Source: an uncultured Verrucomicrobiae bacterium
Lineage (GTDB): Bacteria > Verrucomicrobiota > Verrucomicrobiia > Limisphaerales > Palsa-1400
Direction of reading: 5' to 3'
Assembly: GCA_963707025.1 (NCBI GenBank)
Contig: CAVPOM010000012.1
Coordinates: 352,001 to 416,000, forward strand
DNA: 64,000 nt
The notes under the pieces: model-generated
The model's database searches: none
What the model was told of the DNA's origin: nothing
The model's input: the letters and a program-made list of their open reading frames with translations, nothing else
In this document: one piece after another, positions 21,422-52,663 of the stretch
Position numbering within the stretch: position 1 is the first letter of the stretch
Layout of the letters: the number at the start of each line of letters is the position of its first letter
Program-made: the position numbers and the translations under genes

Positions 21422-24400
21422 ATGAGCGATTATAGGGATTACGAGGTGTTCAAGCAGTTGGGCGGCGATATTCGCTCTGAAATCGTTTTGGCGCGAAAAC
21501 CGGGTTCCAAGCGTGTCGTTCTTCTCAAAACGCTGAAATTGGAGACGCTGTCGGCGGGCGTCGGCGCGTTTATGGAGCCCGGGTGCCCGCCTTCGAGGAG
21601 TTGGGCGGCGACGCCCGGATCCCTTACATCGAGGCGATCAAGGCCCAAGGCGCCGCCGCGCGCGTCAGCAACTCCCACATGGCGCCGATTCACGACCTGT
21701 TCCCCACGGAGGAAGGCGTCTGTTTTGCCACCGACTTCTATGAGAACGGTTCGCTCAGAAACAAGATTCGTTTAAACCAGCCCAACCACCGGGTGCTGCA
21801 AAACGTCATCGGCGGCATCCTGCATGGTTTGTCGTGCTTAAGATCGGTCGCCCATCGCGGGCACGGCAGCCTGCATACCGACAATGTTATGCTCGGCGGC
21901 GGTCCGGGAACGCCCCTGCGGGAATGTCCTGTCTTCCTGACCGATGTGGCTCCCATCACGGCGCAAAGCCCCGCGGAGATGGAGACGGAGGACCTTCATG
22001 CCGTCGGGCAAATCCTTTACCAGTTGGTCATGCGCAAGGTGGAAGACCGCAAGGAAGGTTTTCCCTTCCCGGTCCGCTCTTCGCCGGAATGGGACGGGCT
22101 GGGTGACAAGGACGGATTCTGGCTGCGCCTCTGCAACCGGTTGCTGGATCCCGACCTGGCGCCCGGCGCCGAATCGCCCGAAGCCCTGCTGCGGGAAATT
22201 GGCCGGCCCGCCTCGCGCAAGCCCATTCTGATTGCGGCAGGCCTGTTGCTCGCTGCGGCGGCCGGTATCGGGGTCTGGCTGGTCATCCCCCGCAAGACCG
22301 TTATTCTGCCGCCTCATTTGACCATTGTCTCGATGACCCCAAGCGACGGGAGAGTAACAAATGGGCAGACGATGACCTGGCAATTCAAGCTCGATCATCC
22401 GGGTGGGCCGATTTCCGCGCCGCAATTGCATCAAGAATTGAAGCCGGATGCGGATGGTCTTTACACCTTTGCCACCACTCCGAGCCTTGGCGCGCCGGCC
22501 GGGCGCACCAACATCTTGATTTCAGATGGCGGGGCGCTCTCGACCAATCTGGCCTTCGAGATTGTTCCGCCGCCGTCGCCTTACCTGAGCATGGACTCGA
22601 CGATTCCGGGTGACAGGAGAGTGATGATTGGGCAGACAATGACGTGGAAATTCAGGGTCGCGAATACGGCCGGGCCGATTTCCGCGCCGCAATTGCATAT
22701 AGAATTGAAGCCGGATGCGAATGGTCTTTACACGCTGACCAATGTTCCGAGTCCTGGCACGCCCACGGGCCGCTCCTACATCTTGATTTCGGATGGAGGG
22801 ACGCTCTCGACCAATCTAGCCTTCGAGATTGTTTCGCCGCCGCCGCCTTACCTGGCCATAGTCTCGATGGTTCCGAATGACGGGAGAGTGATCATTGGGC
22901 AGACAATGACGTGGAAATTCAGGGTCGCGAATACGGCCGGGACGATTGTCGCGCCGCAATTGAATCAGCAACTGCAGCCAGATGCGAACGGTGTTTACAC
23001 GCTTGCCAACACTCCGAGTCCTGGCGCGCTTGTGGGGCGCACCAACATCTTGATTTCGGATGGAGGGACGCTCTCGACCAACCTAGCCTTCGAGATTGTT
23101 TCGCCGCCTCCGCCTTACCTGGCCATAGTCTCGATGGTTCCGAGTGACGGGAGAGTGATGATTGGGCAGACGATGACCTGGAAGTTCAAGGTCGCGAATA
23201 CGGCCGGGACGATTGTCGCGCCGCAATTGAATCAGCAATTGCGCCCAGATGCGAACGGTGTTTACACGCTTACCAATGCTCCAAGCCCTGGCACGCCCAC
23301 GGGCCGCTCCTACATCTTGATTTCGGATGGAGGGACGCTCTCGACCAATCTAGCCTTCGAGATTGTTTCGCGGCCGGCGTCTTACCTGACCGTAGTCTCG
23401 ATGGTTCCGAGTGACGGGAGAGTGATGGTTGGGCAGACGATGACCTGGAAGTTCAGGGTTGCGAATACGGCCGGGACGATTGTCGCGCCGCAATTGAATC
23501 AGCAATTGCAGCCAGATGCGAACGGTGTTTACACGCTTACCAATGCTCCAAGCCCTGGCGCGCCTGTGGGGCGCACCAGCATCTTGATTTCGGATGGAGG
23601 GACGCTCTCGACCAATCTAGCCTTCGAGATAGTTTCGCGGCCGGCGTCTTACCTGACCATAGTCTCGATGGTTCCGAGTGACGGGAGAGTGATGGTTGGG
23701 CAGACGATGACCTGGAAGTTCAGGGTTGCGAATACGGCCGGGACGATTGTCGCGCCGCAATTGAATCAGCAATTGCAGCCAGATGCGAACGGTGTTTACA
23801 CGCTTGCCAACACTCCGAGCCCTGGCGCGCCTGTGGGGCGCACCAGCATCTTGATTTCGGATGGAGGAACGCTCTCGACCAATCTAGCCTTCGAGATTGT
23901 TTCGCGGCCGGCGTCTTACCTGACCATAGACTCGATGGTTCCGAGTGACAGGAGAGTGATGATTGGGCAGACGATGACGTGGAAATTCAGGGTCGCGAAT
24001 ACGGTCGGGGCGATTTCCGCGCCGCAATTGCATATAGAATTGAAGCCGGATGCGAACGGTCTTTACACCCTGACCAATGCTCCGAGTCCCGGCACGCCCA
24101 CGGGCCGTTCCTACATCTTGATTTCGGATGGAGGGACGTTCTCGACCAATCTAGCCTTCGAGATAGTTCGGCCGCCGCCGCCCGCCCTGACCGTCCAATC
24201 CAGCAACCCAGCCAACGCCGAAGCCGGAACGCTGATTACTTGGATTTTGTCGGTTGACGTCGGCCTCTTTCCCGAGCGTCCGGACTGCTCGGCCAAATCC
24301 TCCAATCCCGAACTGATTCCCGATCAGAGTCTGACCGCCAATTTGGCCCCGGCGGGCAATGGGAAATACACATTAACTGTGACGGCCCAATCCAGCAAAG

Positions 24401-26334
24401 GAACGAACGGCTCCGGCCAAATTGTCATTCAGGCGAATGTTCCGGGAAGTGAAACCGCGACGACAAACCTGGCTTATCATATTGTGCCTGTTCCGCTGCC
24501 GGAATTGAGACTAATGAATCCATTGCCGCTGGTCCTGGCAGCCGATTCCAACTCGATCCCGCTGCGCTTCGCGTTGAGCGATGGGAGGGTGTCTGCCCAA
24601 GAGCTGGGCTTCTCCGTGGATCTCAGTCCCAGGAACATTCTTGATCAGTCCAACCAAATTGACGGCTCCATCCGGTGGGTGACGCTCACGCGCCTGCCCG
24701 GAACCAACGGCTTAGTCACCATCAAAGCCATTGTTATTGCGGGCGACCGAACCAACAGTGCCAGCTATAAACTTACGGTGGAGGCGGTCAAGCCGCCGGC
24801 CCTGGTGCTGGCCGGCTCCGCCAACACCGATCTGGATGTGAATGCCGCCAGCGAGATGGCGCTCATCCCATGCAGCACACCGGATTCCAAACAGCTCCAC
24901 ATGGAGATTCTGGGAATAAAAATTATGCCGGCAAATTCGCCGCTTCTGGACACCAACGGCATCAAGTTCGAGCCTGGGCAGGCGCCGGACACCAACCGCG
25001 GCTTCATTGTGTTGCAGCCCAACCGCGGCTATGTCGGCACAGCCACGGTGACCGTCCGCGCCACCGCGGCCGGCGCGACTCCGGCCCAATTTGCCATCGG
25101 GTTGACCGTCGGCGGTGACATTCACCCCCCCAAAATCAAACTTTCCGCAGACGCTATGACGCTGGAACAAGACCAGACCAACCAAATTGGCGTGACGGTG
25201 GACGACGAGTATTCGCCAGCGGGCTTATCGTGGGAGGTCTTATCCCCTCCGCAGAGCTTCGTGTCTGTCAAGCCGGACATGCCGCAGCGCATCGTGACCC
25301 TCACCGGCCAGGCGCCGGGAAAGGCGACCGTTGCCGTCCGCGCGACCGCCCGCAACGGCAGCAACAGCACCGCCAATTTGACGGTCAATGTTCTTCCCGC
25401 CGAGCCGCCTCAATTCCCCATTTTTCCCGACAGCCCGGTCCAGTACCCCAAGGGCCTCCCGGTCAAGATTCAGATTGCCGACAATGCGACGCCGCCGGGG
25501 GCCATCCGCCTGGACTTCCCCGGATTATCCTGGGAGAAGACGAATTGGACCCGGACTACAAATGTGGGGGCCAACCATGTCGAGCTGACGCTCAACCTGA
25601 GCGGACCGCCGGAGGAGGACGCAACCGGGCAGACTTTTGAAATCACCGCCACCGATTTGGCCGGCCATGCCGCCACAAAACGGCTGGAGTTTGTCTTCCC
25701 TCCACGATCGAATTTGTACACCAATGACGCGACGGGCATGGTCCTGGCCTGGGTGAAGGGCTTGCCGGAGACAACCGGCGCCGCCTGGCCGGTGGACGGC
25801 CGCAGCGGCGGTGGCTGGGTCGGCAAGTACGAGGTGATGCAAGGGCAGTTCGCAAAGGTGCTGGGGACCAATCCCAGCGCGAACCAGGGCGACCCCAATT
25901 TTCCGGTGGAGAACATGAGCCTGGCGCAGGCCAGCGAGTTTTGCGATAAATTGACTGCGGGAGACCCCAACCTCCGAGGCTGGCGTTATGCCTTGCCCTC
26001 TGAGCAGCAATGGCTCTGGTTTGCCGGGAAGCAGCCGCCCATGAACGCCAACGGGAATTTCACCAATTTCGCCAATTACCAGATGAGCGGTTTCGGCAAG
26101 CCCATTGCCGTTGGCTCGCTGGAGTCCAACAGGTTCGGCCTTTACGATGTCTTTGGCAATGTCGGTGAATTGACCGGAACACGCAATCCGGGCAACGCCA
26201 AATATCAAGCTTACAAGGGAGGGAGTTTTAGACAAACCAGCCCCGCCTTGGCTCCAGAGTGGCCTGGATACACCGATAAACCCGAAAACAACATCGGCTT
26301 CCGCGTCGTCCTGGTGCCGGTGGCGGGGAAATAG
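21422..26334 (+). CDS. Pseudokinase-TM-89-aa repeats-Ig-like-FGE/SUMF1 fusion (about 1637 aa; one frameshift near 21580)
   Basis: YEVFKQLGG…VVLLK (from 21422), HGSLHTDN, TDVA, EDLHAVGQILYQL; TM ILIAAGLLLAAAAGIGVWLV; C-terminal GKYEV, FPVENMS, LPSEQQW, NRFGLYDVFGNVGE, KGGSF, GFRVV. Confidence 0.85.
22315..24180 (+). repeat. 7 tandem 267-bp (89-aa) intragenic repeats
   Basis: GQTMTW…ISDGG.LSTNLAFEIV occurs 7 times; 267-bp period (22330, 22597…). Confidence 0.92.
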
Positions 26335-35366: not shown

Positions 35367-36212
35367 ATGAGTGAAACCATACTGAATGAAGCTGAGTGGG
35401 CTGAGTACTCGGCGGCGCGCCTCAAGGCGGTGTGGGTGGATTTTGCGGAGGCCGCGCCGGAGCAGCGCGCGCAGTATTTGAAGGAGGAACTATCCCGCGC
35501 CATCAAGCCGATACCCGGCGGTTACCGCAAGAACTACCTGGGGCGGTTGCGCATGAAGTTCCCGGCTTTTGCGCCGGCGGCGGCGCCGGCGCGGGCTGAG
35601 CCGGCCGACGACACCACGCCGGTGGAAACAGCCCCCTACGCGGAGCTTGTCCAGGCCTTGCTGCTTCGCATTGGCGCCATGAAGGCCGATGAAAAAGCAG
35701 ACTTGGCCCGGCAACTCGGACCGGTCCTGCCATTTCCAAAGCCCGCCCCGGTGGCGGCCCCGGCCCCGGCAGGCCACGCCAAGGATCGTGAAGCGCTGGA
35801 GGCGGCTTTGAACAATTTCGCGATGCTGGAAAACCTGGGCTGGAGAATCTGGAAGGAAATGGCCCCGCAAGGCGAGGTGAAGAAGGAGGGAGATCTTAGC
35901 AACCAGTCCATGGATTACTTCCGGGGCAAGAACGAGGTTCTTCCCCAGTTGAAAGAAACCATGGTCAGGAACCGGATGGTGATCGGAGCTCTGCTGATGG
36001 CGATCCCCGGAGGGCTGCAAAAATATGCCAACGATTTTTATGGCACTTTCAGTCCTGACTACATTACGGCCGCCTTCGGCACCAGCGAGAAGAAATGTTG
36101 GTCCGAGTATGTCAAGCTGGCCAAGCAAGACTTTCCGATCGCCCAGGCCATCAGCTTTAAAATCAGGGGCTATATCGGCCAGTATGCCGAGGGCGTGATG
36201 AAAAAATCCTGA
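35367..36212 (+). CDS. Hypothetical T6SS-associated protein; C-terminus resembles the Fha/TagH C-terminal domain, no FHA domain
   Basis: GALLMAIPGG…FSPDYI…KKCWSEY resembles the Fha C-terminal pattern (ALxA…FxP…KAxxWxxY); ends 2 nt before tssK. Confidence 0.55.
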   Translation: MSETILNEAEWAEYSAARLKAVWVDFAEAAPEQRAQYLKEELSRAIKPIPGGYRKNYLGRLRMKFPAFAPAAAPARAEPADDTTPVETAPYAELVQALLLRIGAMKADEKADLARQLGPVLPFPKPAPVAAPAPAGHAKDREALEAALNNFAMLENLGWRIWKEMAPQGEVKKEGDLSNQSMDYFRGKNEVLPQLKETMVRNRMVIGALLMAIPGGLQKYANDFYGTFSPDYITAAFGTSEKKCWSEYVKLAKQDFPIAQAISFKIRGYIGQYAEGVMKKS

Positions 36213-36214
36213 TT

Positions 36215-37582
36215 ATGTCACCACAAATTCACTGGCACGAGGGACTGTTCTTGCAACCCCATCATTTGCAAATGATGCAGCGGGGCATCGGGCTGCGGGC
36301 CGAGTCGGAATGGAAACTGGTCTGGCCCTACGCTTACGGGGTGGTGGAAGCGACTTTGTTGCGTGACGATTTGGAGGACATGCGGGTGCGTTTTGCCAAG
36401 TTGCGCGTCATCATGCCCGGCGGGACGGAGGTCAGTTTCCCCGAGGCCGCCGAATTGCCGGCCTTGGACATACGGCCCATGTTTGCCCGGCCCGGCATCA
36501 AGTTTTTCGATGTCTTTTTGGGAGTGCCGCTGTGGATGAAGGATCGAGCCAACACCTTCCGGCCCGAACAGCAGGCTGATCCCCGCGTGAAGCTGCTCTA
36601 CCGCCTCAAGGAGGCTTCCTGCCCGGATGAAAACACCGGGGAGAATCCAAAGGACATCCAGTTTAGAATGGTCAACGCCCGTTTGATGTTTGATTTTGAG
36701 GACCGGAGCGACATGGAGGTTTTGCCGTTGCTGCGCATCAAGAAAGGCGTGGGAGATGACGAGGGCCGGCCGCGGCTGGATCCGGAGTTTGCCTACCCCT
36801 CGCTGGTGCTCAATGCGTCGCCGGTTTTGCGCGACTTGGTTCGCGCCTTGACCAGCCAGGTGGATGCCACCCGGGACGAACTGGACCGGCAATTGCACAA
36901 GGGTGGCATCGGGCTGGAACAAAAGGTGGAAATGACCGCGCGGCTGATGCTGTTGAGCCGGTTCTCGGCCAAAATGCTGTCGCTGGTCGAGGCTCCCAAC
37001 GTGCCGCTTTATGGCGTTTACCTGGAACTGCGGACGTTTCTGGCGGAGTTGGCGGCTTTTCGGCCGGGCCAGGCCGTGTTTGCGGCGGCGGCCTATGATC
37101 ACGAGAATCCGTATCCGGTTTTCAAGGAATTAGACATAAAAATCCGGCGCGAGATCAAACCGGCGGGGGGTGTGTTTCTCAAGGTGCCCTTTGAGATGAC
37201 GGCGCAGAAGACGGCGCAGATCCCCGTGGCCAAGCTGACGAGCGAGCACTTTACCAAACCCAACGCCTATTACCTGGCGGTCAAGACCAAGGCGGATCCG
37301 ACCGCCCTGGCGCGGTATGTCGAGGACGGCCACAAGTTTAAGCTGATGCCCTTGAGCATGTGGAGCGCGGCGATCTTTGGCATCACCCTGCAGGAGCAGC
37401 GGATTCCGCCGCTGGAATTTCCCAGCCAGGCGGGCCTCTACTACTTCCTTTTGCAGGTCAAGGACAACGCGGCGCGCTGGGATCAGATTCAGAACGAAAT
37501 GGCCATGGCCATCAATTATAAACAGGCGGACTTGAATCTTTCGGACGCGGAATTTACTTTATACATGACGGTGCCATCCTGA
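36215..37582 (+). CDS. tssK: T6SS baseplate subunit TssK
   Basis: IHWHEGLFLQPHHLQ, PYAYGV, IMPGGT, YDHENP. Confidence 0.92.
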   Translation: MSPQIHWHEGLFLQPHHLQMMQRGIGLRAESEWKLVWPYAYGVVEATLLRDDLEDMRVRFAKLRVIMPGGTEVSFPEAAELPALDIRPMFARPGIKFFDVFLGVPLWMKDRANTFRPEQQADPRVKLLYRLKEASCPDENTGENPKDIQFRMVNARLMFDFEDRSDMEVLPLLRIKKGVGDDEGRPRLDPEFAYPSLVLNASPVLRDLVRALTSQVDATRDELDRQLHKGGIGLEQKVEMTARLMLLSRFSAKMLSLVEAPNVPLYGVYLELRTFLAELAAFRPGQAVFAAAAYDHENPYPVFKELDIKIRREIKPAGGVFLKVPFEMTAQKTAQIPVAKLTSEHFTKPNAYYLAVKTKADPTALARYVEDGHKFKLMPLSMWSAAIFGITLQEQRIPPLEFPSQAGLYYFLLQVKDNAARWDQIQNEMAMAINYKQADLNLSDAEFTLYMTVPS

Positions 37583-37614: not shown

Positions 37615-38406
37615 GTGAAAACTGAGCAACCATTTGATTGGGGAGGACAGGAAGGGCGCAAGGAATCGGCCGCACCCCGCAGGCGCCCGGCGCGGGAGGA
37701 GGAGAGTCCCGCGCCCTCCTATGTGGATCTGGTGGAGCCTCTCTTCCAGTATATCTGCAAGGTGAACCGGGGCGCGAAATCGGTGAGTCCGGTCACGGGG
37801 AACCTGGCGGTGGTGCGGGGCGATGTCGAGAACATTCTGCAGAAAATATCGGCCAAGGCCAACAAGGACGTGACTCTGGCCCGGCTGCACGCGAAAATGG
37901 AAAAGCCGCTGGTGTATTATGTGGATTCGGTCATTGAGCAGAGCAACCTGACGATTGCGGCGGAATGGGGCCAGCAGCGGCTGGCGGCGATTCGCTGGAA
38001 CGATCTGGCCGGCGACCAGGCTTTTTTCAATCTCTTGGATGCGGAGTTGGCGGCGCAATCGGAAAGTTCGGAGCAGGCTCTGGCCGTATTCTATCTCTGT
38101 CTGTGCCTTGGGTTCACCGGCATGCACGCCGGCCAGCCCGTCGCCATTAACGGCCTCATCAGCCGGATCGCGCCGCGCATTCGTTCGCTGGTGGAGAGCG
38201 ACCTGAACGCGCGGATTTGCGAGTTGGCGTATGAGGTGCATCGGCCCTTGCCGGCGCCGGTGGGCAGCCGCATCGGGATTATCGTGCTGGTCTTTGTCTT
38301 CGTCACCATCTCGGTGTTGGTGGTGTATTATTCACTCTATATTTCGGCGACCAGCGACTTGCGCACTGCCGTGGATGCCGTCATCGCTCACTCCCCCCCG
38401 TCCTGA
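37615..38406 (+). CDS. tssL: T6SS membrane subunit TssL/DotU (no OmpA domain)
   Basis: YYVDSVI, AGDQAFF, VFYLCLCLGFTG, single C-terminal TM. Confidence 0.88.
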   Translation: MKTEQPFDWGGQEGRKESAAPRRRPAREEESPAPSYVDLVEPLFQYICKVNRGAKSVSPVTGNLAVVRGDVENILQKISAKANKDVTLARLHAKMEKPLVYYVDSVIEQSNLTIAAEWGQQRLAAIRWNDLAGDQAFFNLLDAELAAQSESSEQALAVFYLCLCLGFTGMHAGQPVAINGLISRIAPRIRSLVESDLNARICELAYEVHRPLPAPVGSRIGIIVLVFVFVTISVLVVYYSLYISATSDLRTAVDAVIAHSPPS

Positions 38407-38433
38407 GCGCCGATTGACTCACTTTTGAATTCC

Positions 38434-41400
38434 ATGGACGAACAAAAACCAGGCCCCGTTGAATGGTCCGTCGGCAGCGGTTTGGGCGTTGCTGCCGTGC
38501 TGACTGCCGGCTTGACCCGGAAGTGGTGGATCAGCTTGATTTTGCTGGGATTGCTCCTGCTGGTGGTGGTGGGCTACATTGCCTGGCGCCTGTGGAAACG
38601 CCGCCGCAATGAACAAAAGTTTTCCGGCGACATGGAGCAGCAGTCCGGCAATGCCAATGTGCGCAAGGCGGAGCAAAAGGCGCAGTTGGACCAATTGCGG
38701 CGCGCTTTCCAGCAAGGCATCCTCGTTTACAAGCAACGCAAAAAAGACATCTATTCGGTTCCCTGGTATCTCATGATCGGGACGCCCGGCAGTGGAAAAA
38801 CCGAAGCGATCCGGCATTCCGAAATTGGTTTTCCGCCGGGTTTGACGGATCCGATGACCGGGGTTGGCGGGACGATCAACATGAATTGGTGGTTCACCAA
38901 TTATGGAGTCATCCTGGACACCGCCGGCAAAATGGTGTTCCCGGAGGCGGGCGGCGGCGGCCAGAGCAACGAATGGGACGAATTCCTCCGGCTGCTGCGC
39001 AAGCATCGCCCGGCCTGTCCGATTAACGGCCTGTTCCTGGCGCTGGATGTGGACAAGATGATCAAGGACACGGGCGAGGCCATCTCCAAAAAGGCCAGCC
39101 AGGTGGCCCAACAATTGGATCGGGTGCAGCGGGCGCTGGACGTGCGTTTTCCGGTTTATGTGCTGGTGACCAAGAGTGATTTTCTGACGGGCTTCAAGGA
39201 ATACTTCGACGGGATTGACGATCCGCAACTGCAAAATCAAATATTGGGCTGGTCCAATCAAGCTCCGCTGGACGCTCCGGTGGACACCGATGCCATCGAA
39301 GGGTACCTCCGGGAATTGGTGGAAATCATCAAACGCCGCCGCCTGGCGGTCATTCGCGCCCCCGTCAACCTGGATCTGCGAGAGAACCGGCGCCTGGACT
39401 GCACCGACGCGATGTTTGCCTTTGCGGAGAGTCTGGAGCGGCTGATTCCGCGTTTAAAACGTTACCTGCAAATCATCTTTTCCTCGGGCGAGTTTTCGGC
39501 CAAACCGGTCTTTTTGCGGGGCATCTATTTCACCTCCTCCATGCAGCAGAACGGCGATTTGGACGAAGCTTTGGCGGAATTCATGGGCATCAAAGTGACC
39601 GAACTGCCCCCGGCCAATGTCCAGGAAAAGGAAAAGTCCTATTTTCTGAGAGACGTGTTTATTGACAAGGCGTTTCAGGAGCGATTGGTGACCAGCGCTT
39701 CCAACACCCGCCGCATGCGTCGCAACCGCCTGTTGATTCTGTCCGGCCTGACGGTCCTGATCCTGGGATCCCTGGTGACTTTCTCCCTGCTGGGTCATGG
39801 CGCGTTGGACCGGAGTGTGGGCAAGGACAAAGTGATCTGGGACGAAGCCACCAACCAATGGGTGCTGCCGCCCTGGGCCCCCGGATCGAGTTTTTGGCAT
39901 CCGGTGGTTGATTTGTCCAATGGCAATGACTGGCGCTACACGGGCGGCGAACCGCTTTCGTCCAAGTTGACCAACAGCCTGGTGGATTTCCTTGGCATGG
40001 TCAAGGACCGTGTTAGCCTGGCCGTCCAGCAACATTCCCTTGATCTTCCGGCCCTTGCGCGGACTGCGGGGAGACCTGAAATTCCCGGAAGGCCAGCGGG
40101 TGCTGGTGGAACGCAGCGTGGTGCTGCCGTTGCTGGAGGGCGCGCGTTACAAAATGTCCCGCCTGGAGGTTTCCGCCCCCCAAGACACCGAAGGGGTCAT
40201 CCGGTTGCGCAAAGCGCTCGAGTGCCTGGTGCAAACTCAGGCGGATATTGACGCCGGGCTGGGTTCTTTGTCCAATGCGGTGGTGCAGGAGAAGCTGGCC
40301 TCTTTCGTTACGCCCCTGCTCCAGTTTGTCGTGAACACGAACCTCCCCATCAATTCCAGTTTGCTGGAGGCGTGCGCGTGGACTTACTCCAGCAGCGGCG
40401 CCGGAGCCAAGTCCTGGCCGCCCAAAGCCTTGTCGGGCGGCACCAATTTGGCTTCCGATTTGGCCATCAACACCGGATTGGATTGCCTGATCGCCCAAGT
40501 CCGCAAGAACCAGCAGCAAGTGGAAGGGCACGCTCAATTGCTCGCCGCCGTTTGCGCCAGTTTATCAGCGTTGGCGCAGGCGGAAGACACGTTGAACGCC
40601 GACGCCGTCAACGATTGCGCGTTGACCCGGGAGCATTTTGAGGCCTGGCAGGCGGCGGTGAAAGATCTGCGCTCGGCCCAGAAGGAGGCTGCGCAGCAGC
40701 GCGTGTTGGACATTTCCGCCTCCGCCGGCCTTCTGCGGGCGGCCGCCAACAAGATTGAACTGGAAAACGGCGCTGCCTCCGGCGAGGCCTTTAAGGAAAT
40801 ACGGCGGGGCGCGGACGCCGGGGCCAAGACGGACAAGCGTCCGTTGTTCGGCGAGATTACCAACAAGTGCCAGGTCGCGGTGGGCGGCATGCAAAGCAAG
40901 GTGGAGAGCACGCTGGCCAAATACATGGGATCCCTGTCCAATTGGGATAACGATTTCCTGGCCACCGGCAGCAGCGGGGTCAAACCCTATTTTGAGCAAC
41001 GCGACGATCTTTATCAGAACGCCTTTGTTCTGCGCAATCCCACCGCGGCGGTGCCGGTCGGAACGCTTCAGAAGACGCTGGTCAACTGGCGCCAGGGGCG
41101 GGACAGCATCAGCGCGCAAATTGAAAGCTATAAAGGGCCGTTAAAGCCCCAGTTGCAGCGGGTCTGTCAATGCGCGATTGACGAGTCGGACAAGCGGGGT
41201 CTGGACGGTTTATTGTCCAACTACTGCGCCAGGGCCGAGGCGAATTTGAGCGATTACTTTAATGCCAGCACGGTTTCCTTTGACCGGATCACCGAGGCGC
41301 ACGCCTTTTTCACCAATCTGGACAGCGATCTTGGATTGCAGAGTTTCCGGGAATTGCCGCCCAGATGGCAGGACAAACTGCAAAAACTCCACAACGACGA

Positions 41401-42295
41401 CGCCGACGCCACCAAAAAATCGGTCAGCAAAGCCTACACCAACTGGCTGGCGGGCCAATTGTCCGCCCGCGGCGGCGGACCCGACAGCGACAACCCGCTG
41501 CAGCCCTACCTCGACTTCCGCAAGCGATGGGATAATGTCACCAATCAATTCAACAGCGATGCCGTCAAGTATTTTTCCAAGGAATTGGGCGAGCAATTCC
41601 CGCAATGGGCGGCGAAAGAGGCGAGAAACCGCCTGGATGAGGGCGTCAAGTTTTGCAACGACTGGCTCAACCAGAACACGGGTTTTCCGGTGCTCCTCGG
41701 CAGCGCCACGCCAAGGACCCCGGAACAAGTCGCCTTGCTGAAGAGGCAACTGGACCTGCGCGCCAACGAATTCAAGCAGGTTCAGGACGGTGACCAAACC
41801 CTCGCTTTTAAGAGCTTCGCCAATCGCGTGTCGGTGCTGTCGCAGGTTGTCGCCGTGCTGGTGCCGGACCCCGGGCGTCCGGCCAGGCATACCGTGGACA
41901 TCCACCCCGTCACCGGTGACGCCGCCAACCAATGTCCCTACCTCTACCTGACCACCTCGGGAGCCAAAGCCCAGCGCTTGACCCTCGGCCGGAAACGCGA
42001 TCCATCGGTCGCGCTGTCCGACTTGACCGGGGCCTTGGAGATCAAAGTGACGAGCGGTCCGGATCCGGACACCCCCGGGGCCGGGGTTTTTTACATCAAC
42101 GAATGGAAGAGTTGGGGGGCGTTGAATCTCATCAATCTGGCCAACGTGCGATTTGAAGGTGGCAAGTGGATCGTGCCGATTCCTGTCAAGAATTCCGACG
42201 GCTCCGACATTGGCGCCGTTCACGTCGAATTGGAATTCAATCCCCCGCTGCCTTCCCCGGAACAGTGGCAGCGCCTGAACCCGCCGCCGCCATGA
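38434..42295 (+). CDS. tssM: T6SS membrane subunit TssM/IcmF (about 1286 aa; one frameshift near 40020)
   Basis: PWYLMIGTPGSGKT, WWFT, LDTAG, PINGL, FPVYVLVTKSD..GF, FLRGIYFTS, SYFL; periplasmic half continues in the 39992-42295 frame. Confidence 0.9.
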
Positions 42296-45200
42296 GCGAT
42301 TTCTACAAGGATTTTCTGCGCGAACCCGGCCGCCTGCCCAGTCAGACGCCGGGGCCGCGCATTACTTTGGGAGCGCTGGGCAAGCATCCCGGCTGGGACG
42401 ACCACATTGACGGTTTGCTGGGCACCGAAACGCTCGCGCTCTTCAAGAATTTTTTTTATATCCAGGGCATCGGGCGGGAAATTGACTCGGGCGCGTGGGA
42501 CAAGCCGGAAATCGCCGGCGACCTGATTGCTTTTGATCATTTCCTGATGTGGGTTCGCGGCGACCAGTTCCTGCTGGGGCGCCTCTGGGCCTCGTCCGAC
42601 GGCCGCGGACGGACCAAGTATCCCATGATCCTCTGCGCCCAATGCAACGGACTGCCTTTGGGCTGGGCGTTGCAACACATCCTCCCCAAGCTCGACCAAA
42701 TGCGCGACGCCTGCCGGAGCGCCCGGACCGCCGATGAAGTGCGCCAGATCATCCTGAGCGCGCAGGCCGAATTGCGGGAGAGGGCCGCCTTCGGGCCCAT
42801 TGGCCCCGAAGCAGAAGCGTCCCTTGATCGGGCGGCATTCCTGGCCGGGCCGGAGCTGGGGCCGGAGCGCATGGGTTTGATGCGGATTCTGCACGAGTTG
42901 GACTCCAATTTTTTCGCTTACAAGAGGGCCAGGTCCGGCAAGACCATCGGCGCCGACGTGCGCCCCCAGCACATCCGGGTTCCTCGCAATGCCGGGTCTC
43001 CGGCGGAATCGCTCTGGGCTTGGCGGGAGTTTTTTAATTTGCTGTTCCGACGAGACCTGCCGATGCTCTTCGTGGCGCCGGCAGGCAAATCGTGGCTGGA
43101 TATTTGCGCGGGGGAGCCGTCGCTCAACGAAATCTATCCATTGCGGGTCCAGTCGGTCGGCCTTGCCAGCAGCGTTCCCTATGAAATTGGCCCTGAAATC
43201 AAATCCTCCTGCGCCGAACTGGCCAGCCAGTTTGAGACGGGCCATGTCGTGCCGTCGGGGCAGACCGAAATCATCAGAAAAGCGGACCTCAAGCCAGCCG
43301 CCCCAAGCGGAACCTGGGACACGGCGCCAGCCGCGAAGCGATTCAACTGGAAAATCCTCGGCGCAGGAGGCGGAGGGCTGATTCTGCTGCTGCTGGTTTG
43401 CGTCCTTTGGCCCGGGCGCGGCAAGCATCCAACAACCCTGTCACCACCGCAGAAAGTGGAAACCAACCAACCGCCAGCGCCAAAGGCGCCTCCTCCGGAT
43501 ATGACCCCCCCGGTGGCTGTGTCCAAGACAGTTGGGGCTGTGGCAGGGAACCCGGTGCCCGTCAATCTGGAAGGAACGGATCCCAAAGGCCGTCCTGTCA
43601 CCTTTCAGATCGTCGCTCCGCCGTCGCACGGTCGCTTGAGCGGCGATCCGCCGAGTCTTCGCTATTCGCCGGAACCCAATTTCACGGGAACCGATTTTTT
43701 CACTTTCAAAGCGGTGCGCGACAAGGTCGTTTCCGAGCGGCGACCATTACCGTGCGCGTTGCTTCCCGCCCCCTGCCGCCGCAGTTGTCGGCTATGAAAG
43801 ACCAAACGATTGAGACGGGCGACAGCTTCAAGCCGTTGCCGTTCACGGTGACCGGCGACAAGACTCCCGCGGAACGGTTGACCACCAGGCTGGAGTCATC
43901 GGATCCCCTCTGGCTGCCGGCCAGTTCGTTAAGTTTGGATCGCAACGGCAGCAATTGGGCCGTGCGCATCAATCCTTCTCCGAGCCGCGCGGGCGCGGCC
44001 GATCTGGCCATTATCGCCTCGGACGGGGACGGCAACAGCGCCACCAACCATGTTCGGGTGGCGGTCACCTCGGCGGCTTGGTCTGCGCCCACCCTTGTAC
44101 TGCAGGGACCGGCACGGCAAGTCATCCGGGCCGGTTCGGAAATCGCCCCTGTTTCCTTCCAGGCGTCGGACACCAAGACCCCGGTTGACCGGTTAACCTG
44201 GTCGTTCGAGTCGTCCAACCCGGCGCTGCTTCCGGCGGCCGGGATTCAAGTCCGTCAGGAAGGGGCGGTGTGGCGGGTGGCGGCGGCGGCGGCGCCCGGA
44301 CAAACGGGAACCGCGTCGGTTACGGTGAGCTTGAAAAATGAGGGCGGTTTGGCCGCTACCAATCAGTTTCTGCTCGTGGTGCGAAAGCCGCCGGCCTTCA
44401 ATCAGGCCTTGGAAAAGGTGCAAATTGCGCGGGGCCAAACTTATCGCGGGGCCGTCAAAGCGAGCGACGCGGATCTTCCGGCGGCGCAACTCCAATTGAA
44501 GGCGCGCGTGGAACCCCTCGCTTGGGTCGCCCCCAACGTGCTCGGAGACGGCGCGGAATGGACCGTGGAGCTGGCCGCCCGCGACGCCGCCCCAGGGCGC
44601 GGCAAACTGATCCTGGAGTTGAGCGACGGCGAATTAACAGCCACCAACGAGTCCGTCATCGAAGTGGTCCCGCCGGAAGCGCCAGTGTTTGTCACCGCTC
44701 CGCAGGGGATCACGGAAATCCCGGCGGGAAAAACCTCGCCGCCCCTTGCCTTTGTCATCTCCAACAAGAATGGCACTCCAGACCAGATCCAATTTTCCGT
44801 TTCCTCCAACGATAAAAAGGCCATCCCGGACGAACATTTAACAGTCAGTTACGACGGCGGCTCCTGGCATTTGCAGATTACCCCCAATGACGGGGCCGCC
44901 GGACAGATCAGCTTGGACGCGGTGGCGAGCGACAACCTTGGAACGTCCGCCACCAACCGCTTCACCGTTGCAGTGGCTGCGTCCTCCGGGGTTCTTCGCA
45001 ATTCGCTGGGAATGGAGTTCGTTTGGGTGGACAACCTGCCCGGCACGGCGAAAGCGGGTTGGGACGCCGGACATCAAGGAGGCGGCTGGGTGGCCAAGTA
45101 CTTGGTCACGCAAAAAGACTTTTCAACCGTGATGCATGCCAATCCAAGCGCCTACAAAAGCGGAGGGGACTCGGCTCCTGTCGAAAGCATGAGTGCGGCG

Positions 45201-45593
45201 GATGTGGACGAATTCTGTCACAAATTGGCGGCTCAAGATCAAAGCAGCCGGCCTTGGCCGGCGGGGTGGTCCTGCCAGTTATTGACGCTGGAACAATGGA
45301 AATTCTGCGCTGCCAGCTCCCATGACGCCGATTGCATCCTGAGCACGCCGGACTTGAAGCGCCAGCATCCCGAGCGCGTCGGGTCTCTCGGCCCCAATGC
45401 ATTGGGACTCTTTGACGCCATCGGTAATGTCTATGAGGTCACTCTCGGCCCGGACAATGGCAAGCTGGTGGCCGGGGCCTGGTACTCGCAACCAAAGACG
45501 GCGGCGCTGGCCCTTAAATTCAGCTACCCGTTCACCCCGGGTTATTGGGCTGGCTTCCGCATCGCCATCCTGCCGGCCGTCCAAACTCCGTAG
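42292..45593 (+). CDS. TagF-like domain-TM-Ig/cadherin-like repeats-FGE/SUMF1 fusion (about 1100 aa; one frameshift near 43737)
   Basis: ALGKHPGWDDH, GRLWASSDGRGRTKYPM (TagF-type GK…D and SxDxxGRxYP motifs); TM; PPSHGRLSG..YSPEPNFTGTDFFTF; C-terminal NSLGMEF, VTQKDF, NALGLFDAIGNVYE, GFRI. Confidence 0.8.
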
Positions 45594-45598
45594 AACTT

Positions 45599-46721
45599 AT
45601 GAGCGCACCGTCCCAATACCTCGAACCTGTTTCTTCAGACGCCCCCTGCGGGGACGCCACCTCCGTCGGCAACCTGTGGCAACTGGATGGTCTGTTTACG
45701 CCTTCGGGGGCCGACTTGCTCAATTGGAAACCGGATTGGAAGGAAGTGACGAAAGTGGCGGAGAGGCTGCTGCCGAATTGCAAGCATGTCAAACTTGCCC
45801 TGATTTTTGGCGGCATGGCCATGCAAAAGGAGGGTCTGGGCGGTTTTCGGGACGGGCTGGGATTATTGCTGGGCTGGCTGGAGCGGTACTGGGACCATTT
45901 GTATCCCCAGTTGGACAAGGAACTGGCCGATCCTTACGAGCAAATGCTGGAAAGAATCAACGAATTGCGCAACCTGACCAACCAGGGCATCGGGGGCATC
46001 TCCGTGCTGGCTTGGCTCTATGGGACCACCATTTGCCGCTCCCGTTCCTTTGGCAACCTGAGTCTCCGGGCCGTGGCCATCGTTGCAGGCTCTGTCAAGC
46101 CGGTGGAAGGGGAAGCCGTGCCGACGGCGGGGGACACGCCGATGACGGCGGCCCAACTGGACGCGGCCTTCCGCGAGTTCCAGGAGGCCGAGCCGGATGA
46201 ACTGGCGGCGCAGATTCAGGCGGTCAAGGAATCCCAGGAAATCCTGGGCAAACTGGACGCGTTTATTTCGGAGAAGGCCGGTCCCGGGCGCGGTCCCAGC
46301 CTGGGCCCATTGGACCAGGCGCTGGAGTTGCTGGAGAAATGTCTGGGCTCGCAGGCCGGGGAGGCGGCTCCGGCGGCCGGGGCGGCCCCCGTGGCCGCCG
46401 GGGCGCGGCCAGCGGAGGCTCCGGCGGCCGGGGGAAAGATCAGTTCGCGCGGGGAGGCGCTGAAATCCATCGCGGCCATCTGCGAGTATTATCGGCGCTG
46501 CGAGCCCCTCCAGCCCGGTGCCGCTGCTGTTGCAACGGGCCGGGCGCCTGATCGAAATGGACTTTTTGCAAATTGTGGAGGATTTGTCCATTGAAGGCGG
46601 CGACCAGGCCCGGCGCCTGTTGGTGGGGGCCAAAAAAGGAGCCGGAAGAAAGCGCGAAATCTTGAAGAAATTGCTTGCAATTGACAACAGTTGCTGCCAA
46701 AGTATGGCTTATCGTATTTAA
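45599..46721 (+). CDS. tssA: T6SS TssA (ImpA N-terminal domain); frameshift near 46506, true 3' end uncertain
   Basis: LEPVSSDAPCG, PDW, KHVKL, LERYWDHLYPQLD; C-terminal ISSRGEAL…YYRRCEP[SSPV]PLLLQRA..LIEMDF. Confidence 0.9.
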
Positions 46722-50781: not shown

Positions 50782-52663
50782 AAAATTTCTGCAATACTAC
50801 GAGCAGGAGCTGCTCTTCGTGCGTCAGATGGCGGGCGAGTTTGCCCGCGAGCATCCCAAAATCGCCGGTCGCCTGGCGTTGGACAGCGAGGGCAATGAGG
50901 CCTGTCCGGATCCTTTTGTGGAGCGTCTGCTCGAAGGATTCGCCTTCTTGTCCGCGCGCATCAACCTGAAGCTGGATGCCGAATTTCCGCGCTTCACCCA
51001 GGCGCTCTTGGAAACGGTGTTTCCGCATTTTTTGGCCCCGCTGCCCTCCCTGGGCATTGTGCGGTTCCAACCCGAGCCGGATGCCCCCGGAGAAGGGTTT
51101 GTCATTGAGCGGGGCGCCGTGCTGCGCAGCATTCCCGGCGGGGGCAGGGAAAAGGGGGAAGTGTTCACTTCCTGCGCCTTTCGCACCGCCCATGCCGTGC
51201 GCCTGCTGCCGTTGCGCGTCCTCCAGGCGCAATACTACACGCGCGACCTGAGCGAATTGGAGTTGCCCCAGGATGCCGCGGTGGCGGCGGCCCTGCGCCT
51301 GCGCTTGCAAACCCTGGGCAATCAACCGGTGGCGGAGGTGGATTACAACGCCCTGACTTTCTTCCTGGCCGGCGGCGAATTGGGGCCGATGCTGTACGAG
51401 CAATTATTTGGCCGGGCCCTCAACGTCCTGGTGCGCCCGGTCGGAATTCGTTCCTCCAATGTTCCGCTCCTGCCCTCCGGGGTGATCAGGCCGGTGGGCT
51501 TTGGCGAAGAAGAGGCTCTGCTGCCACCGACCCCGCGCAGTTACGACGGCTATCGCCTGCTGCGGGAGTACTTCACGCTGCCGGAGCGTTTTCTGTTTTT
51601 CCAACTCAACGGGTTGAAAGGGGCGGCGCTGCCGGGGGATCAGTTGGACATCATCATCACCTTCAAGGCCCGGGAAGCCCGGCTGGAACGGCGGGTGCAG
51701 CCGGCCTGTTTTGAACTGGGCTGCACGCCGGTGGTGAATCTTTTTTCCAAACAACTGGATGAGATTCATTTGACAGATCAGTTTTCCGAGTTCCTCGCCG
51801 TCCCGGATCGCACCCGGCCGCTGGATTTTGAGGTTTATGACATCGAGCAAGTCACCGGGGTGGGGGAGCTGGCCGGCCAGGAGCAGACCTTCCGGCCGTT
51901 TTACTGGTCCAAGGACGACGGCACCGGCGGGGAGCCTTACTACACCCTCAACCGGGTGGAACGCCAACTGACCGTGCGCGAGAAGAGACTCGGCGCCCGC
52001 TCGGATTATGTCGGCTCCGACGTTTTCCTCTCGCTCTGTGACGGCAACTCGGCGCCGTATAATTCCCGCCAGGCGGAGTTGATCAGCCCTTACAACAAGC
52101 TGCGCTTGCGCGCGCTGTGCAGCAACCGCCACCTCCCCATCCAAATGACGGTGGGCGAGGGGCACACCGACTTCGACATCATCTCCGGACCGGTTCAGTC
52201 CATTCGCTGCATTGTCGGGCCGACGCCCCCCAAGCCGTCTTGCGCCAACGGAGAGTTCGCCTGGCGGCTGGTCAGCCATTTGTCCTTGAATTATCTGTCG
52301 CTGTTGGACAAGGGGGACGAAGGGGCGGCTCCCCTGCGCGAGCTGCTGGGCCTCTACGTGCAGGACGGGGATGCCGCGGCGGAAAAGCAAATCCAGGGCT
52401 TGCGCTCGGTCCAGTCCAAACCGACGGTGCGCCGGGTGGAGGTGCCCGGGCCGATTTCATTTGCGCGCGGACTGGAAATCACGCTGCTTTTTGATGAAGA
52501 TGCCTTTCACGGCGCCGGAGTGTTTCTCTTCGGGGCGGTGCTGCAGCGATTTTTCGCGCGCTACGTGTCGCTCAATTCGTTCACAGAAACCGTCATCACC
52601 TCATTGCAAAGAAAGGAGATCATGCGATGGCCCCCCCAACTGGGCAGACGACCGATGCTTTGA
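50774..52663 (+). CDS. tssF: T6SS baseplate subunit TssF
   Basis: YYEQEL…EFAREHPKIAGRL, DPFVERLLEGFAFL, GYRLLREYF.LPERF, W.LVSHLSLNYLSL, YVSLNSF. Confidence 0.96.
   Translation: MNRKFLQYYEQELLFVRQMAGEFAREHPKIAGRLALDSEGNEACPDPFVERLLEGFAFLSARINLKLDAEFPRFTQALLETVFPHFLAPLPSLGIVRFQPEPDAPGEGFVIERGAVLRSIPGGGREKGEVFTSCAFRTAHAVRLLPLRVLQAQYYTRDLSELELPQDAAVAAALRLRLQTLGNQPVAEVDYNALTFFLAGGELGPMLYEQLFGRALNVLVRPVGIRSSNVPLLPSGVIRPVGFGEEEALLPPTPRSYDGYRLLREYFTLPERFLFFQLNGLKGAALPGDQLDIIITFKAREARLERRVQPACFELGCTPVVNLFSKQLDEIHLTDQFSEFLAVPDRTRPLDFEVYDIEQVTGVGELAGQEQTFRPFYWSKDDGTGGEPYYTLNRVERQLTVREKRLGARSDYVGSDVFLSLCDGNSAPYNSRQAELISPYNKLRLRALCSNRHLPIQMTVGEGHTDFDIISGPVQSIRCIVGPTPPKPSCANGEFAWRLVSHLSLNYLSLLDKGDEGAAPLRELLGLYVQDGDAAAEKQIQGLRSVQSKPTVRRVEVPGPISFARGLEITLLFDEDAFHGAGVFLFGAVLQRFFARYVSLNSFTETVITSLQRKEIMRWPPQLGRRPML

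Follow-up and report, generated by a model that had tools for sequence, protein, structure and literature searches.

A predicted membrane-spanning TagF variant in a verrucomicrobial T6SS cluster

Here we describe a gene at positions 42292..45593 of a 64,000-nucleotide stretch of DNA (the window; positions 352,001 to 416,000, forward strand, of contig CAVPOM010000012.1) from an uncultured Verrucomicrobiae bacterium, part of an 18-contig, 6.96-Mb genome with a completeness estimate of 88%. The gene lies in a type VI secretion system (T6SS) cluster at 36215-59925 and appears to encode a divergent TagF, in which the TagF-like domain is joined through a single predicted transmembrane helix to a large outer part made of immunoglobulin (Ig)-like modules and a head resembling formylglycine-generating enzyme (FGE). 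TagF is the most widespread post-translational brake on the T6SS and is so far known in soluble form, in some cases joined to a phosphatase; in Acinetobacter it is brought to the membrane by a separate protein; to our knowledge, the signal that releases it is still unclear. For genomic context five clusters were compared, those of the window (genome G000) and of genomes G015, G023, G037 and G190.

The sequence marks on which the original prediction of this gene had been built were all located. The TGA stop codon of tssM (42293-42295) overlaps the ATG of the gene at 42292 in the arrangement ATGA, the motif GKHPGWDD is encoded at 42379 with SSDGRGRTKYP in the same frame, and the segment GMEFVWVDNLP...GGGWVAKYLV (45009-45078) has its counterpart, GMVLAWVKGLP...GGGWVGKYEV, at 25735-25807 in a membrane pseudokinase-like protein considered below. 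The features of the gene are as follows.

42292..43263, forward strand: predicted cytoplasmic TagF-fold domain, residues 1-324 (AlphaFold2 model, Foldseek, VIA-align, hhalign, invariant columns)
43348..43419, forward strand: predicted single transmembrane helix, residues 353-376 (Kyte-Doolittle)
43420..43737, forward strand: Pro-rich linker (residues 377-407) and most of Ig-like module 1, frame 1 (Big_9, PF17963)
43737..43738, forward strand: frame break, one base missing relative to an orthologue and a short-read contig (frames, P0001, run X1 contig)
43740..44984, forward strand: end of Ig-like module 1 and Ig-like modules 2-5, frame 3, read-through residues 484-898 (Big_9, repeat layout)
45003..45593, forward strand: FGE-like (C-type-lectin-like) head, residues 905-1100, plus stop codon (PF03781, profile, Foldseek)

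Fold, loop residues and profile comparison place the N-terminal domain with TagF

Curated models detect the N-terminal domain only below their thresholds. Its sole Pfam match is PF09867 (TagF_N), at 13.3 bits against a cut-off of 27 (E 0.08), its sole NCBIfam match is TIGR03373, at 13.5 bits against a cut-off of 41.2 (E 0.059), and no other place in the genome exceeds the cut-off of a TagF model. A profile built from four sequences and compared with 177,635 PDB sequences ranked A. baylyi TagF first, at E 0.14. An AlphaFold2 model of residues 1-353, based on 52 sequences, reached a predicted local distance difference test score (pLDDT) of 86.4 and a predicted template modelling score of 0.85, and with this model all of Foldseek ranks 1-7 were TagF structures (E 1.5e-9 for 9t0n, and 2e-4 to 1e-2 for 6iz8 and 2qnu, which followed it). 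The next match, at rank 8, had a probability of 0.05, and of the later chains only longin-like ones from GATOR1/KICSTOR reached 0.60-0.75.

Structural superposition gave the same ordering. VIA-align matched residues 19-324 of the model to residues 2-320 of 9t0n, the TagF of A. baylyi ADP1 (ACIAD2683), with Z 17.1 over 272 residues, so that the same fold extends over both domains at a sequence identity of 11-12%. The TagF of the P. aeruginosa H1-T6SS (PA0076) shares the N-terminal fold with Z 10.9 (2qnu_B) and 10.7 (6iz8_C), followed by a longin domain at 6.7. At the sequence level, the four-sequence profile retrieved from 5.8 billion sequences a 310-residue protein that bears PF09867 (P0164, E 5.9e-7), to which hhalign then aligned the domain over 135 columns with 97.2% probability (E 3.1e-11).

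The residues on which TagF activity depends elsewhere are also largely retained. According to the accessible text of Lin et al. (2018; PMC5995506), the conserved loop of P. aeruginosa TagF comprises G8, K9, D15, F16, S79, D81, R85 and P88, and its GK and SDR residues are required for Fha binding and repression. Seven of these eight are kept here, namely G30, K31 and D37 in the GKHPGWDDH loop and S101, D103, R107 and P111 in the SSDGRGRTKYP loop, with an R-to-P spacing of 4 as against 3 in P. aeruginosa. Six of the seven are invariant across the 52 sequences and S101 is nearly so.

Because fold, loop residues and profile comparison agree despite the scores below the curated cut-offs, residues 1-325 are, as judged by model and sequence, a divergent but real TagF that covers both domains of the Acinetobacter protein. 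Fold, motifs and profile accordingly place the protein in the TagF superfamily, even though it fails the curated models and departs from the usual description of TagF as soluble and cytoplasmic, the domain being followed by a helix and a 720-residue Ig-like and FGE-like part. The original prediction had read this domain as TagF-like and had proposed a structural and profile comparison as the check; both the first seven Foldseek ranks and the hhalign result bear that reading out.

A 210-residue fragment (P0153) on a 16-kb contig of another assembly is 98% identical to the TagF-like domain of the window, a near-identity indicating that this organism or a close strain has been sampled elsewhere.

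The outer part carries Ig-like modules and an FGE-like head

Beyond a low-confidence linker (residues 325-352), a Kyte-Doolittle scan with a 19-residue window finds a single hydrophobic helix, at residues 353-376, with a peak of 2.39. The Pro-rich linker then leads into five Ig-like modules, which extend to about residue 898. Big_9 (PF17963) matches residues 406-474 (E 5.5e-8) and matches a second time in the frame-3 piece (E 5.1e-9); in the intact orthologue P0001 (1100 residues, N-domain identity 73%) the outer part has Big_9 in three stretches plus He_PIG. We infer an N-in/C-out topology from three features: the protein is without a signal peptide, a folded domain of 350 residues comes before its one helix, and modules of the Ig-like and FGE-like kinds usually occur in the periplasm.

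The C-terminal end matches the FGE-sulfatase family (PF03781) at 31.2 bits against a cut-off of 23.3, in agreement with the succession of transmembrane helix, Pro-rich linker, Ig modules and FGE domain that had been proposed. Compared with the PDB, a profile of six head sequences retrieved TvpA (2y3c, E 8.7e-12), CarF, PorK/GldK (4e-8), PvdO, EgtB, SUMF2 and FGE (2e-4), while a phmmer search of the PDB with the FGE-like end alone returned no match at E 0.01. Foldseek retrieved the same FGE family with a model of the head, a result that at a pLDDT of 58 is consistent with the assignment and not proof of it. By profile and fold family, the C-terminal 200 residues are matched by TvpA (a diversity-generating retroelement variable protein), PorK/GldK (type IX secretion), SUMF2 and the T6SS immunity protein Tsi3; unlike in these scaffolds, the head here is placed distally on a stalk anchored by TagF. 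The surroundings of the TagF gene showed no reverse transcriptase and no template repeat, and no adjacent effector was identified there.

These matches raise the question of whether the head is itself a periplasmic enzyme, formylglycine-generating or an EgtB/PvdO-like oxidase, which the TagF-like part would merely place at the T6SS. The PF03781 score above cut-off speaks for such a role, as do the public names of homologues, 'SUMF1/EgtB/PvdO family nonheme iron enzyme' and 'formylglycine-generating enzyme'. We nevertheless consider it very improbable, as the closest solved relatives are non-enzymatic binders or structural proteins (TvpA and PorK, at the E values above), with FGE itself at 2e-4. 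Moreover, there is no cysteine beyond residue 1015 of 1100; the GGS-like motif is degenerate in this protein. The catalytic cysteine pair of FGE is located near the C-terminus, at a place that would correspond to these last 85 residues, and because no cysteine is found there we read the head as a putative binding module and not an enzyme. In the accessible part of their work, Lopez et al. judged FGE-like T6SS immunity proteins (Tsi3) unlikely to be enzymes and described them as a periplasmic, non-enzymatic binding scaffold.

The frame break is most likely an assembly error

In the window, frame 1 is open from 42292 to 43797, where it meets a stop, and the remainder of the protein is encoded in frame 3, from about 43740 to 45593. 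The interval 42292..45593, originally proposed as one gene, is indeed one gene in homologues; here it is not one open frame, its 3302 bases being indivisible by 3. The original prediction had overlooked this break, as well as similar ones in tssM and in the pseudokinase gene. At 43735-43743 the window reads GAG-CGG-CGA, with the translation ...RDKVVSE / ATITVRV..., and at 43737/43738 it has GAGCGGCG where GAGCCGGCG is expected. P0001 reads through this site as SEPATITV (...RDKITSEPATITVRV...), and adding one C (GAG CCG GCG) restores exactly the P0001 reading, giving 1100 codons.

Independent sequence is available at this site. A 151-base contig from a public sequencing run (X1, record 4) matches 43738-43880 in 143/143 bases with 0 mismatches, and its eight loose-end letters, TTCCGAGC, equal the upstream sequence plus the extra C, a modest support that consists of one contig of depth 2. 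The public runs found were four DNA runs of one study, with 5-7% of the words and a gap-free coverage of about 5 kb of the window; the search of public sequencing runs listed no RNA run with the window sequence. Since P0001 reads through the site and the X1 contig carries the missing C, an error in the assembly is the most likely cause of the break. A systematic deletion at GCCGGC was considered as the cause of the missing C and rejected, the motif not being depleted (110 found, 70 expected).

Taken at face value, the frames of this assembly would instead correspond to two genes, the first coding for a TagF-helix-Ig protein that stops at 43797 and the second, downstream, for an Ig-FGE protein, an outcome that the original prediction had itself named as one that would count against it. 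Such an arrangement is scarcely credible. The second frame has neither a signal peptide nor a sensible start, and its open reading frame (ORF) shares 400 bases with the first. The break interrupts an Ig-like module, and all long homologues are single chains encoded by a single gene; with the missing base carried by a read, the two-gene arrangement is already contradicted.

Four further genes of the cluster also change frame. The shift in tssM lies at about 40034-40068 (by tblastn with the intact TssM of G015, G023 and G037; the protein is intact in four relatives, at 1156-1233 residues), and the pseudokinase gene shifts within a CCCGGG run at about 21572-21585. Compared with the intact genes of relatives, tssA (45545-46667) shifts once, at about 46482-46516, and tssG (52627-54817) once, between 54252 and 54620. 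Five genes each changing frame once within about 33 kb could point to real frameshifts in a decaying T6SS locus, in which the TagF gene would be a pseudogene and its protein not made; the genome completeness estimate of 88% and the fact that independent reads cover the tagF site and none of the other shift sites can be counted on the same side. In our assessment decay is improbable. The sole covered site is intact in the short-read contig, both halves of the TagF gene are 65-78% identical to intact orthologues with no stops besides the shift, and ClpV, TssC, TssF and a 2287-residue gene are intact in the window. In an assembly of 18 contigs, moreover, indels of one base at short runs (CC, CCCGGG) resemble long-read errors, and the pattern across the five genes would be explained by indel errors of a long-read assembly.

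Cluster context and a co-clustered membrane pseudokinase

The neighbouring genes to which the following comparisons refer are listed here.

21422..26334, forward strand: membrane pseudokinase-like protein, with kinase-like cytoplasmic domain, one helix, many Ig-like repeats and FGE-like end
35367..36212, forward strand: 281-residue conserved protein before tssK (homologues; PF20232 sub-threshold)
36215-37582: tssK
37615-38406: tssL
38425..42295, forward strand: tssM (IcmF-related_N E 3e-53, TIGR03348; two frames)
from 45545: tssA
further genes of the cluster: tssB, tssC, hcp, tagJ/ImpE, tssE, tssF, tssG, clpV and vgrG

A long TagF form directly follows tssK-tssL-tssM in all five clusters. The order tssK-tssL-tssM-TagF gene-tssA-tssB-tssC-hcp is common to the window, G015, G023 and G037, and G190 has the order tssK-tssL-tssM-TagF gene. 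In the Pseudomonas H1 cluster tagF presumably also stands directly after tssM.

The signalling genes that accompany TagF in other systems were not found with it. No FHA match lies on the T6SS contig region of G000, G015, G023 or G037, and G190 is without any genome-wide, FHA matches being present elsewhere in the other genomes. Likewise, none of the Pkinase, PP2C and FHA Pfam families occurs among the scanned ORFs of the cluster, which accordingly lacks a recognizable PpkA-PppA-Fha pathway. A conserved, unannotated protein is encoded at 35367-36212; it and its homologues precede tssK in 5/5 clusters (in the others at L026:16232-17146, L029:1435-2424, L030:1952-3097 and L032:12128-13063). PF20232, the T6SS Fha C-terminal domain, matches three of these five family members at 17.5-17.8 bits (E about 0.003, cut-off 23.7), the top genome-wide PF20232 place is the gene of this family in G015, G023 and G037, and the atlas gives the same lead; a profile of the family found nothing meaningful in the PDB. 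Judging from these sequence matches, the protein is possibly an FHA-less relative of the Fha/TagH C-terminal domain and, as a lead only, a candidate partner of the TagF domain.

A single-pass pseudokinase is encoded in the same cluster, 10-22 kb from the TagF gene, in 5/5 genomes. Its cytoplasmic domain retrieves 210 Ser/Thr kinase sequences from the PDB at E up to 1 (best 1.2e-4), HGNLK or HGSLH stands in place of HRDLK, and the VAIK lysine is not present in all members; by sequence, it seems to be a pseudokinase without the catalytic Asp. The family comprises at least 162 members with outer parts of TPR, Ig, PRC-barrel or other type, and among 120 listed members FGE-like ends occur in 8 and PF00069 in 2. 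PpkA-type receptor kinases share this layout of a kinase-like domain in the cytoplasm, a single helix and an extensive outer part. They differ in that the outer part of PpkA is von Willebrand A, whereas those of the pseudokinase family are Ig-like plus FGE-like, TPR, PRC-barrel or other, and in that the protein here has HGN/HGS for HRD and no linked FHA-domain Fha substrate. The original prediction of a pseudokinase agrees with these results; the label 'activator-like' attached to it has no basis, given that the catalytic Asp is seemingly absent and no FHA-domain gene or PP2C is linked.

Aligned over 203 columns (E 1e-29), the pseudokinase and the TagF protein share 36% identity in their FGE-like ends, which supports the paralogy that had been proposed for these ends. 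Within genomes, the outer parts of the two proteins resemble one another in G000 (E 3e-36), G015 (1e-26), G037 (4e-9) and G190 (1e-4). In G000 and G015 the outer part of the TagF protein is closest to that of its own pseudokinase (135 and 104 bits, respectively, the G015 score resting largely on low-complexity stalk), compared with 65-80 bits to other TagF outer parts. The preference is mutual in both genomes, each of the two proteins matching the other better than it matches its orthologues.

Several other features of the region were observed. Between 26623 and 35271, a 2287-residue protein and an ShlB/FhaC-like outer-membrane transporter form a two-partner-secretion-like pair inside the T6SS cluster; the pair is also found in G015 (51% identity, 1812 columns), and the transporter in G037. 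Just upstream of the pseudokinase gene, 16475-20839 encodes a secreted-looking protein of 1454 residues with near-identical Ig-like repeats of about 95 residues. Finally, tssG contains at 52968-53674 an in-frame extra of about 235 residues that is absent from the 338-residue TssG of G015.

An unannotated TagF branch with anchored and soluble forms

A search for the same architecture in other genomes, as the original prediction had suggested, yielded at least 50 long homologues; a long form follows tssM in each of the five clusters. In both family searches scoring was confined to the roughly 8000 candidates with most words in common, and the counts given here are lower bounds. The long forms, at least 50 in number and 696-1804 residues in length, come from Verrucomicrobiae, Phycisphaerae and Planctomycetota. 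A helix follows the TagF-like domain in 48 of the 50, one at 326-513 in each, with further weaker segments in 13. In the precomputed Pfam column, PF03781 is present in 28/50 and PF09867 in 0/50; besides the two enzyme names mentioned above, the public name of long forms is 'hypothetical'. Short forms, at least 112 proteins mostly of about 320 residues, are helix-free in 104 of 111 examined, P0164 being left out of this count as a bridge resembling canonical TagF. P0164 is also the only short form with PF09867; every named short form is 'hypothetical' and about two-thirds are unnamed. Together these proteins are a sizeable unannotated TagF branch in Verrucomicrobiota, Planctomycetota and Lentisphaerota.

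When 401 genomes of the phylum were sampled evenly, TssC was found in 20, this type of TagF in 11 and both in 8, the three genomes with the TagF type and no TssC (PF05943) match (G184, G277 and G325; loci L013, L008 and L009) belonging to one genus. The long form was found in this sample in G000 and G190 only, and among 40 closer relatives in G015, G023 and G037. Following tssM, it is intact in G015 (828 residues), G037 (1095), G023 (1459) and G190 (about 1284).

Where long forms have the helix, the soluble relatives at loci L007-L015 (in G208, G277, G325, G426, G102, G121, G184, G408 and G199) end in a shared hydrophobic-basic motif (FFSRLF, LFWRLFG, LLKKLFG, FVGRLFRGG). This tail may be membrane-binding or partner-binding.

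Anchored and soluble forms interleave in a FastTree phylogeny of 161 N-domains, with 22 parsimony changes compared with 39-51 in 300 label shuffles; as some short-contig gene calls are possibly truncated and about half of the nodes have support below 0.9, this Fitch count shows interleaving and not a number of events. Close orthologues, furthermore, swap the stalk while keeping both ends, P0001 having Ig modules, P0004 fewer of them and P0002 an Ala/Glu/Lys-rich stretch. Such free exchange of the stalk, and the interleaving of the two forms, would suit a protein whose helix and outer part serve only as a tether, keeping the TagF domain next to the TssL-TssM complex, with a possible further attachment to peptidoglycan or the outer membrane. 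TagF would then be a constitutive assembly checkpoint of the sort reported for A. baylyi, and no signal would cross the membrane. In the same direction, the accessible text of a study of A. baylyi (bioRxiv 10.64898/2025.12.08.692957) reports that TagZ complements without its periplasmic domain, the membrane helix being needed. We regard a pure tether as possible though unlikely: the FGE-like head is kept at the far end in 28/50 long forms despite changes in the stalk, a matching outer part occurs on a second membrane protein of the cluster in 4/5 genomes, and a 720-residue outer part would be costly for a mere anchor.

Discussion

Among characterized systems, the closest parallel is provided by A. 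baylyi. In the accessible text of Engelin et al. (bioRxiv 10.64898/2025.12.08.692957), TagF of this species works without Fha, binds Hcp, and needs TagZ, a single-pass protein with a variable periplasmic domain, to reach the membrane; its T6SS cluster, like the one examined here, is described as having neither an FHA-domain Fha nor a kinase/phosphatase pair. The two systems differ in that the A. baylyi protein acts at the membrane via the separate TagZ, whereas here TagF, helix and outer part form one chain, and in that the outer part here is predicted to be folded (Ig-like and FGE-like), in contrast to the reportedly disordered one of TagZ. By analogy, the protein's mode of action is likely to come closest to that of Acinetobacter TagF and TagZ joined in a single chain. 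The Pseudomonas and Agrobacterium systems, in which TagF binds Fha (accessible text of Lin et al. 2018, PMC5995506), are more distant. P. aeruginosa TagF and Agrobacterium TagF-PppA are soluble proteins, of about 220 residues or phosphatase-fused, that act on an FHA-domain protein in a threonine phosphorylation pathway, while the protein described here is predicted to span the membrane and its cluster is without FHA, an active-looking kinase or PP2C.

On the strength of these comparisons, we propose that the protein is probably a membrane-tethered brake on T6SS assembly, a TagF variant with a periplasmic sensor, in which the hold of the brake would be set by what the outer head binds. The TagF domain would bind a part of the T6SS through its GK and SDR loops and so block assembly, and an anchor of its own beside TssL and TssM would make a separate membrane recruiter like the TagZ of Acinetobacter unnecessary. 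Held by the stalk well into the periplasm, at a fixed distance from the inner membrane, the putatively non-enzymatic head could bind an envelope or foreign ligand, either alone or with the matching head of the pseudokinase, and an outside cue would thereby be linked to T6SS firing. Joint sensing is suggested because the second receptor has a matching outer part.

The original prediction had gone further in taking the two proteins as paired receptors that control this T6SS. Control by the TagF protein or by the pseudokinase may be supposed, and a more elaborate scheme can be conceived in which a new transmembrane T6SS switch, made up of the TagF brake as one half and the pseudokinase as the other, replaces kinase, phosphatase and Fha. 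The matching stalks and FGE-like heads would pair in the periplasm and detect an incoming effector or the envelope of a neighbour, effector binding by the FGE-like Tsi3 serving as the model, and the ligand would pull TagF off its target, possibly the 35367 protein, such that the system fires only when the cell is touched or attacked. We advance this scheme as speculation and think it rather doubtful.

A number of observations weigh against the proposal of a sensing brake. With regard to the TagF domain, the family falls below both curated TagF models, F16 of the Pseudomonas loop is replaced by His38, and the Asp of the DW pair aligns with Gly67, a mapping made through P0164 only. The brake function and the binding partner are drawn from comparison with known TagFs, and sensing is not required for a protein of this kind, as the periplasmic part of A. 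baylyi TagZ was dispensable for complementation (bioRxiv 10.64898/2025.12.08.692957, accessible text). The model of the FGE-like head is poor. In G023 the TagF protein and its pseudokinase have outer parts that show no similarity to one another, and the TagF outer part of G037 has closer matches among the proteins of G000 than in its own pseudokinase. As for the frame break, it is a real feature of the given sequence, the evidence for an error consisting of one depth-2 contig and one orthologue, and the frame changes in at least four more genes of the cluster would also fit a decaying locus. Lastly, the genomic context is that of five clusters only, which are related to each other.

In the open full-text literature, subscription journals being outside its scope, we found nothing on a membrane-spanning TagF or on a TagF-pseudokinase pair. 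Within the accessible main text of Engelin et al. (bioRxiv 10.64898/2025.12.08.692957) neither 'Verrucomicrobi' nor 'Planctomyc' occurs, and 'transmembrane' is used only of TagZ and TsmK.

This analysis adds to the TagF superfamily an unannotated branch, spread over Verrucomicrobiota, Planctomycetota and Lentisphaerota, whose members are publicly called 'hypothetical' or 'FGE/SUMF1 enzyme'. If the proposed reading is true, a TagF that spans the membrane and carries a folded periplasmic head would provide these bacteria with a direct, and testable, route from an outside cue to T6SS assembly.

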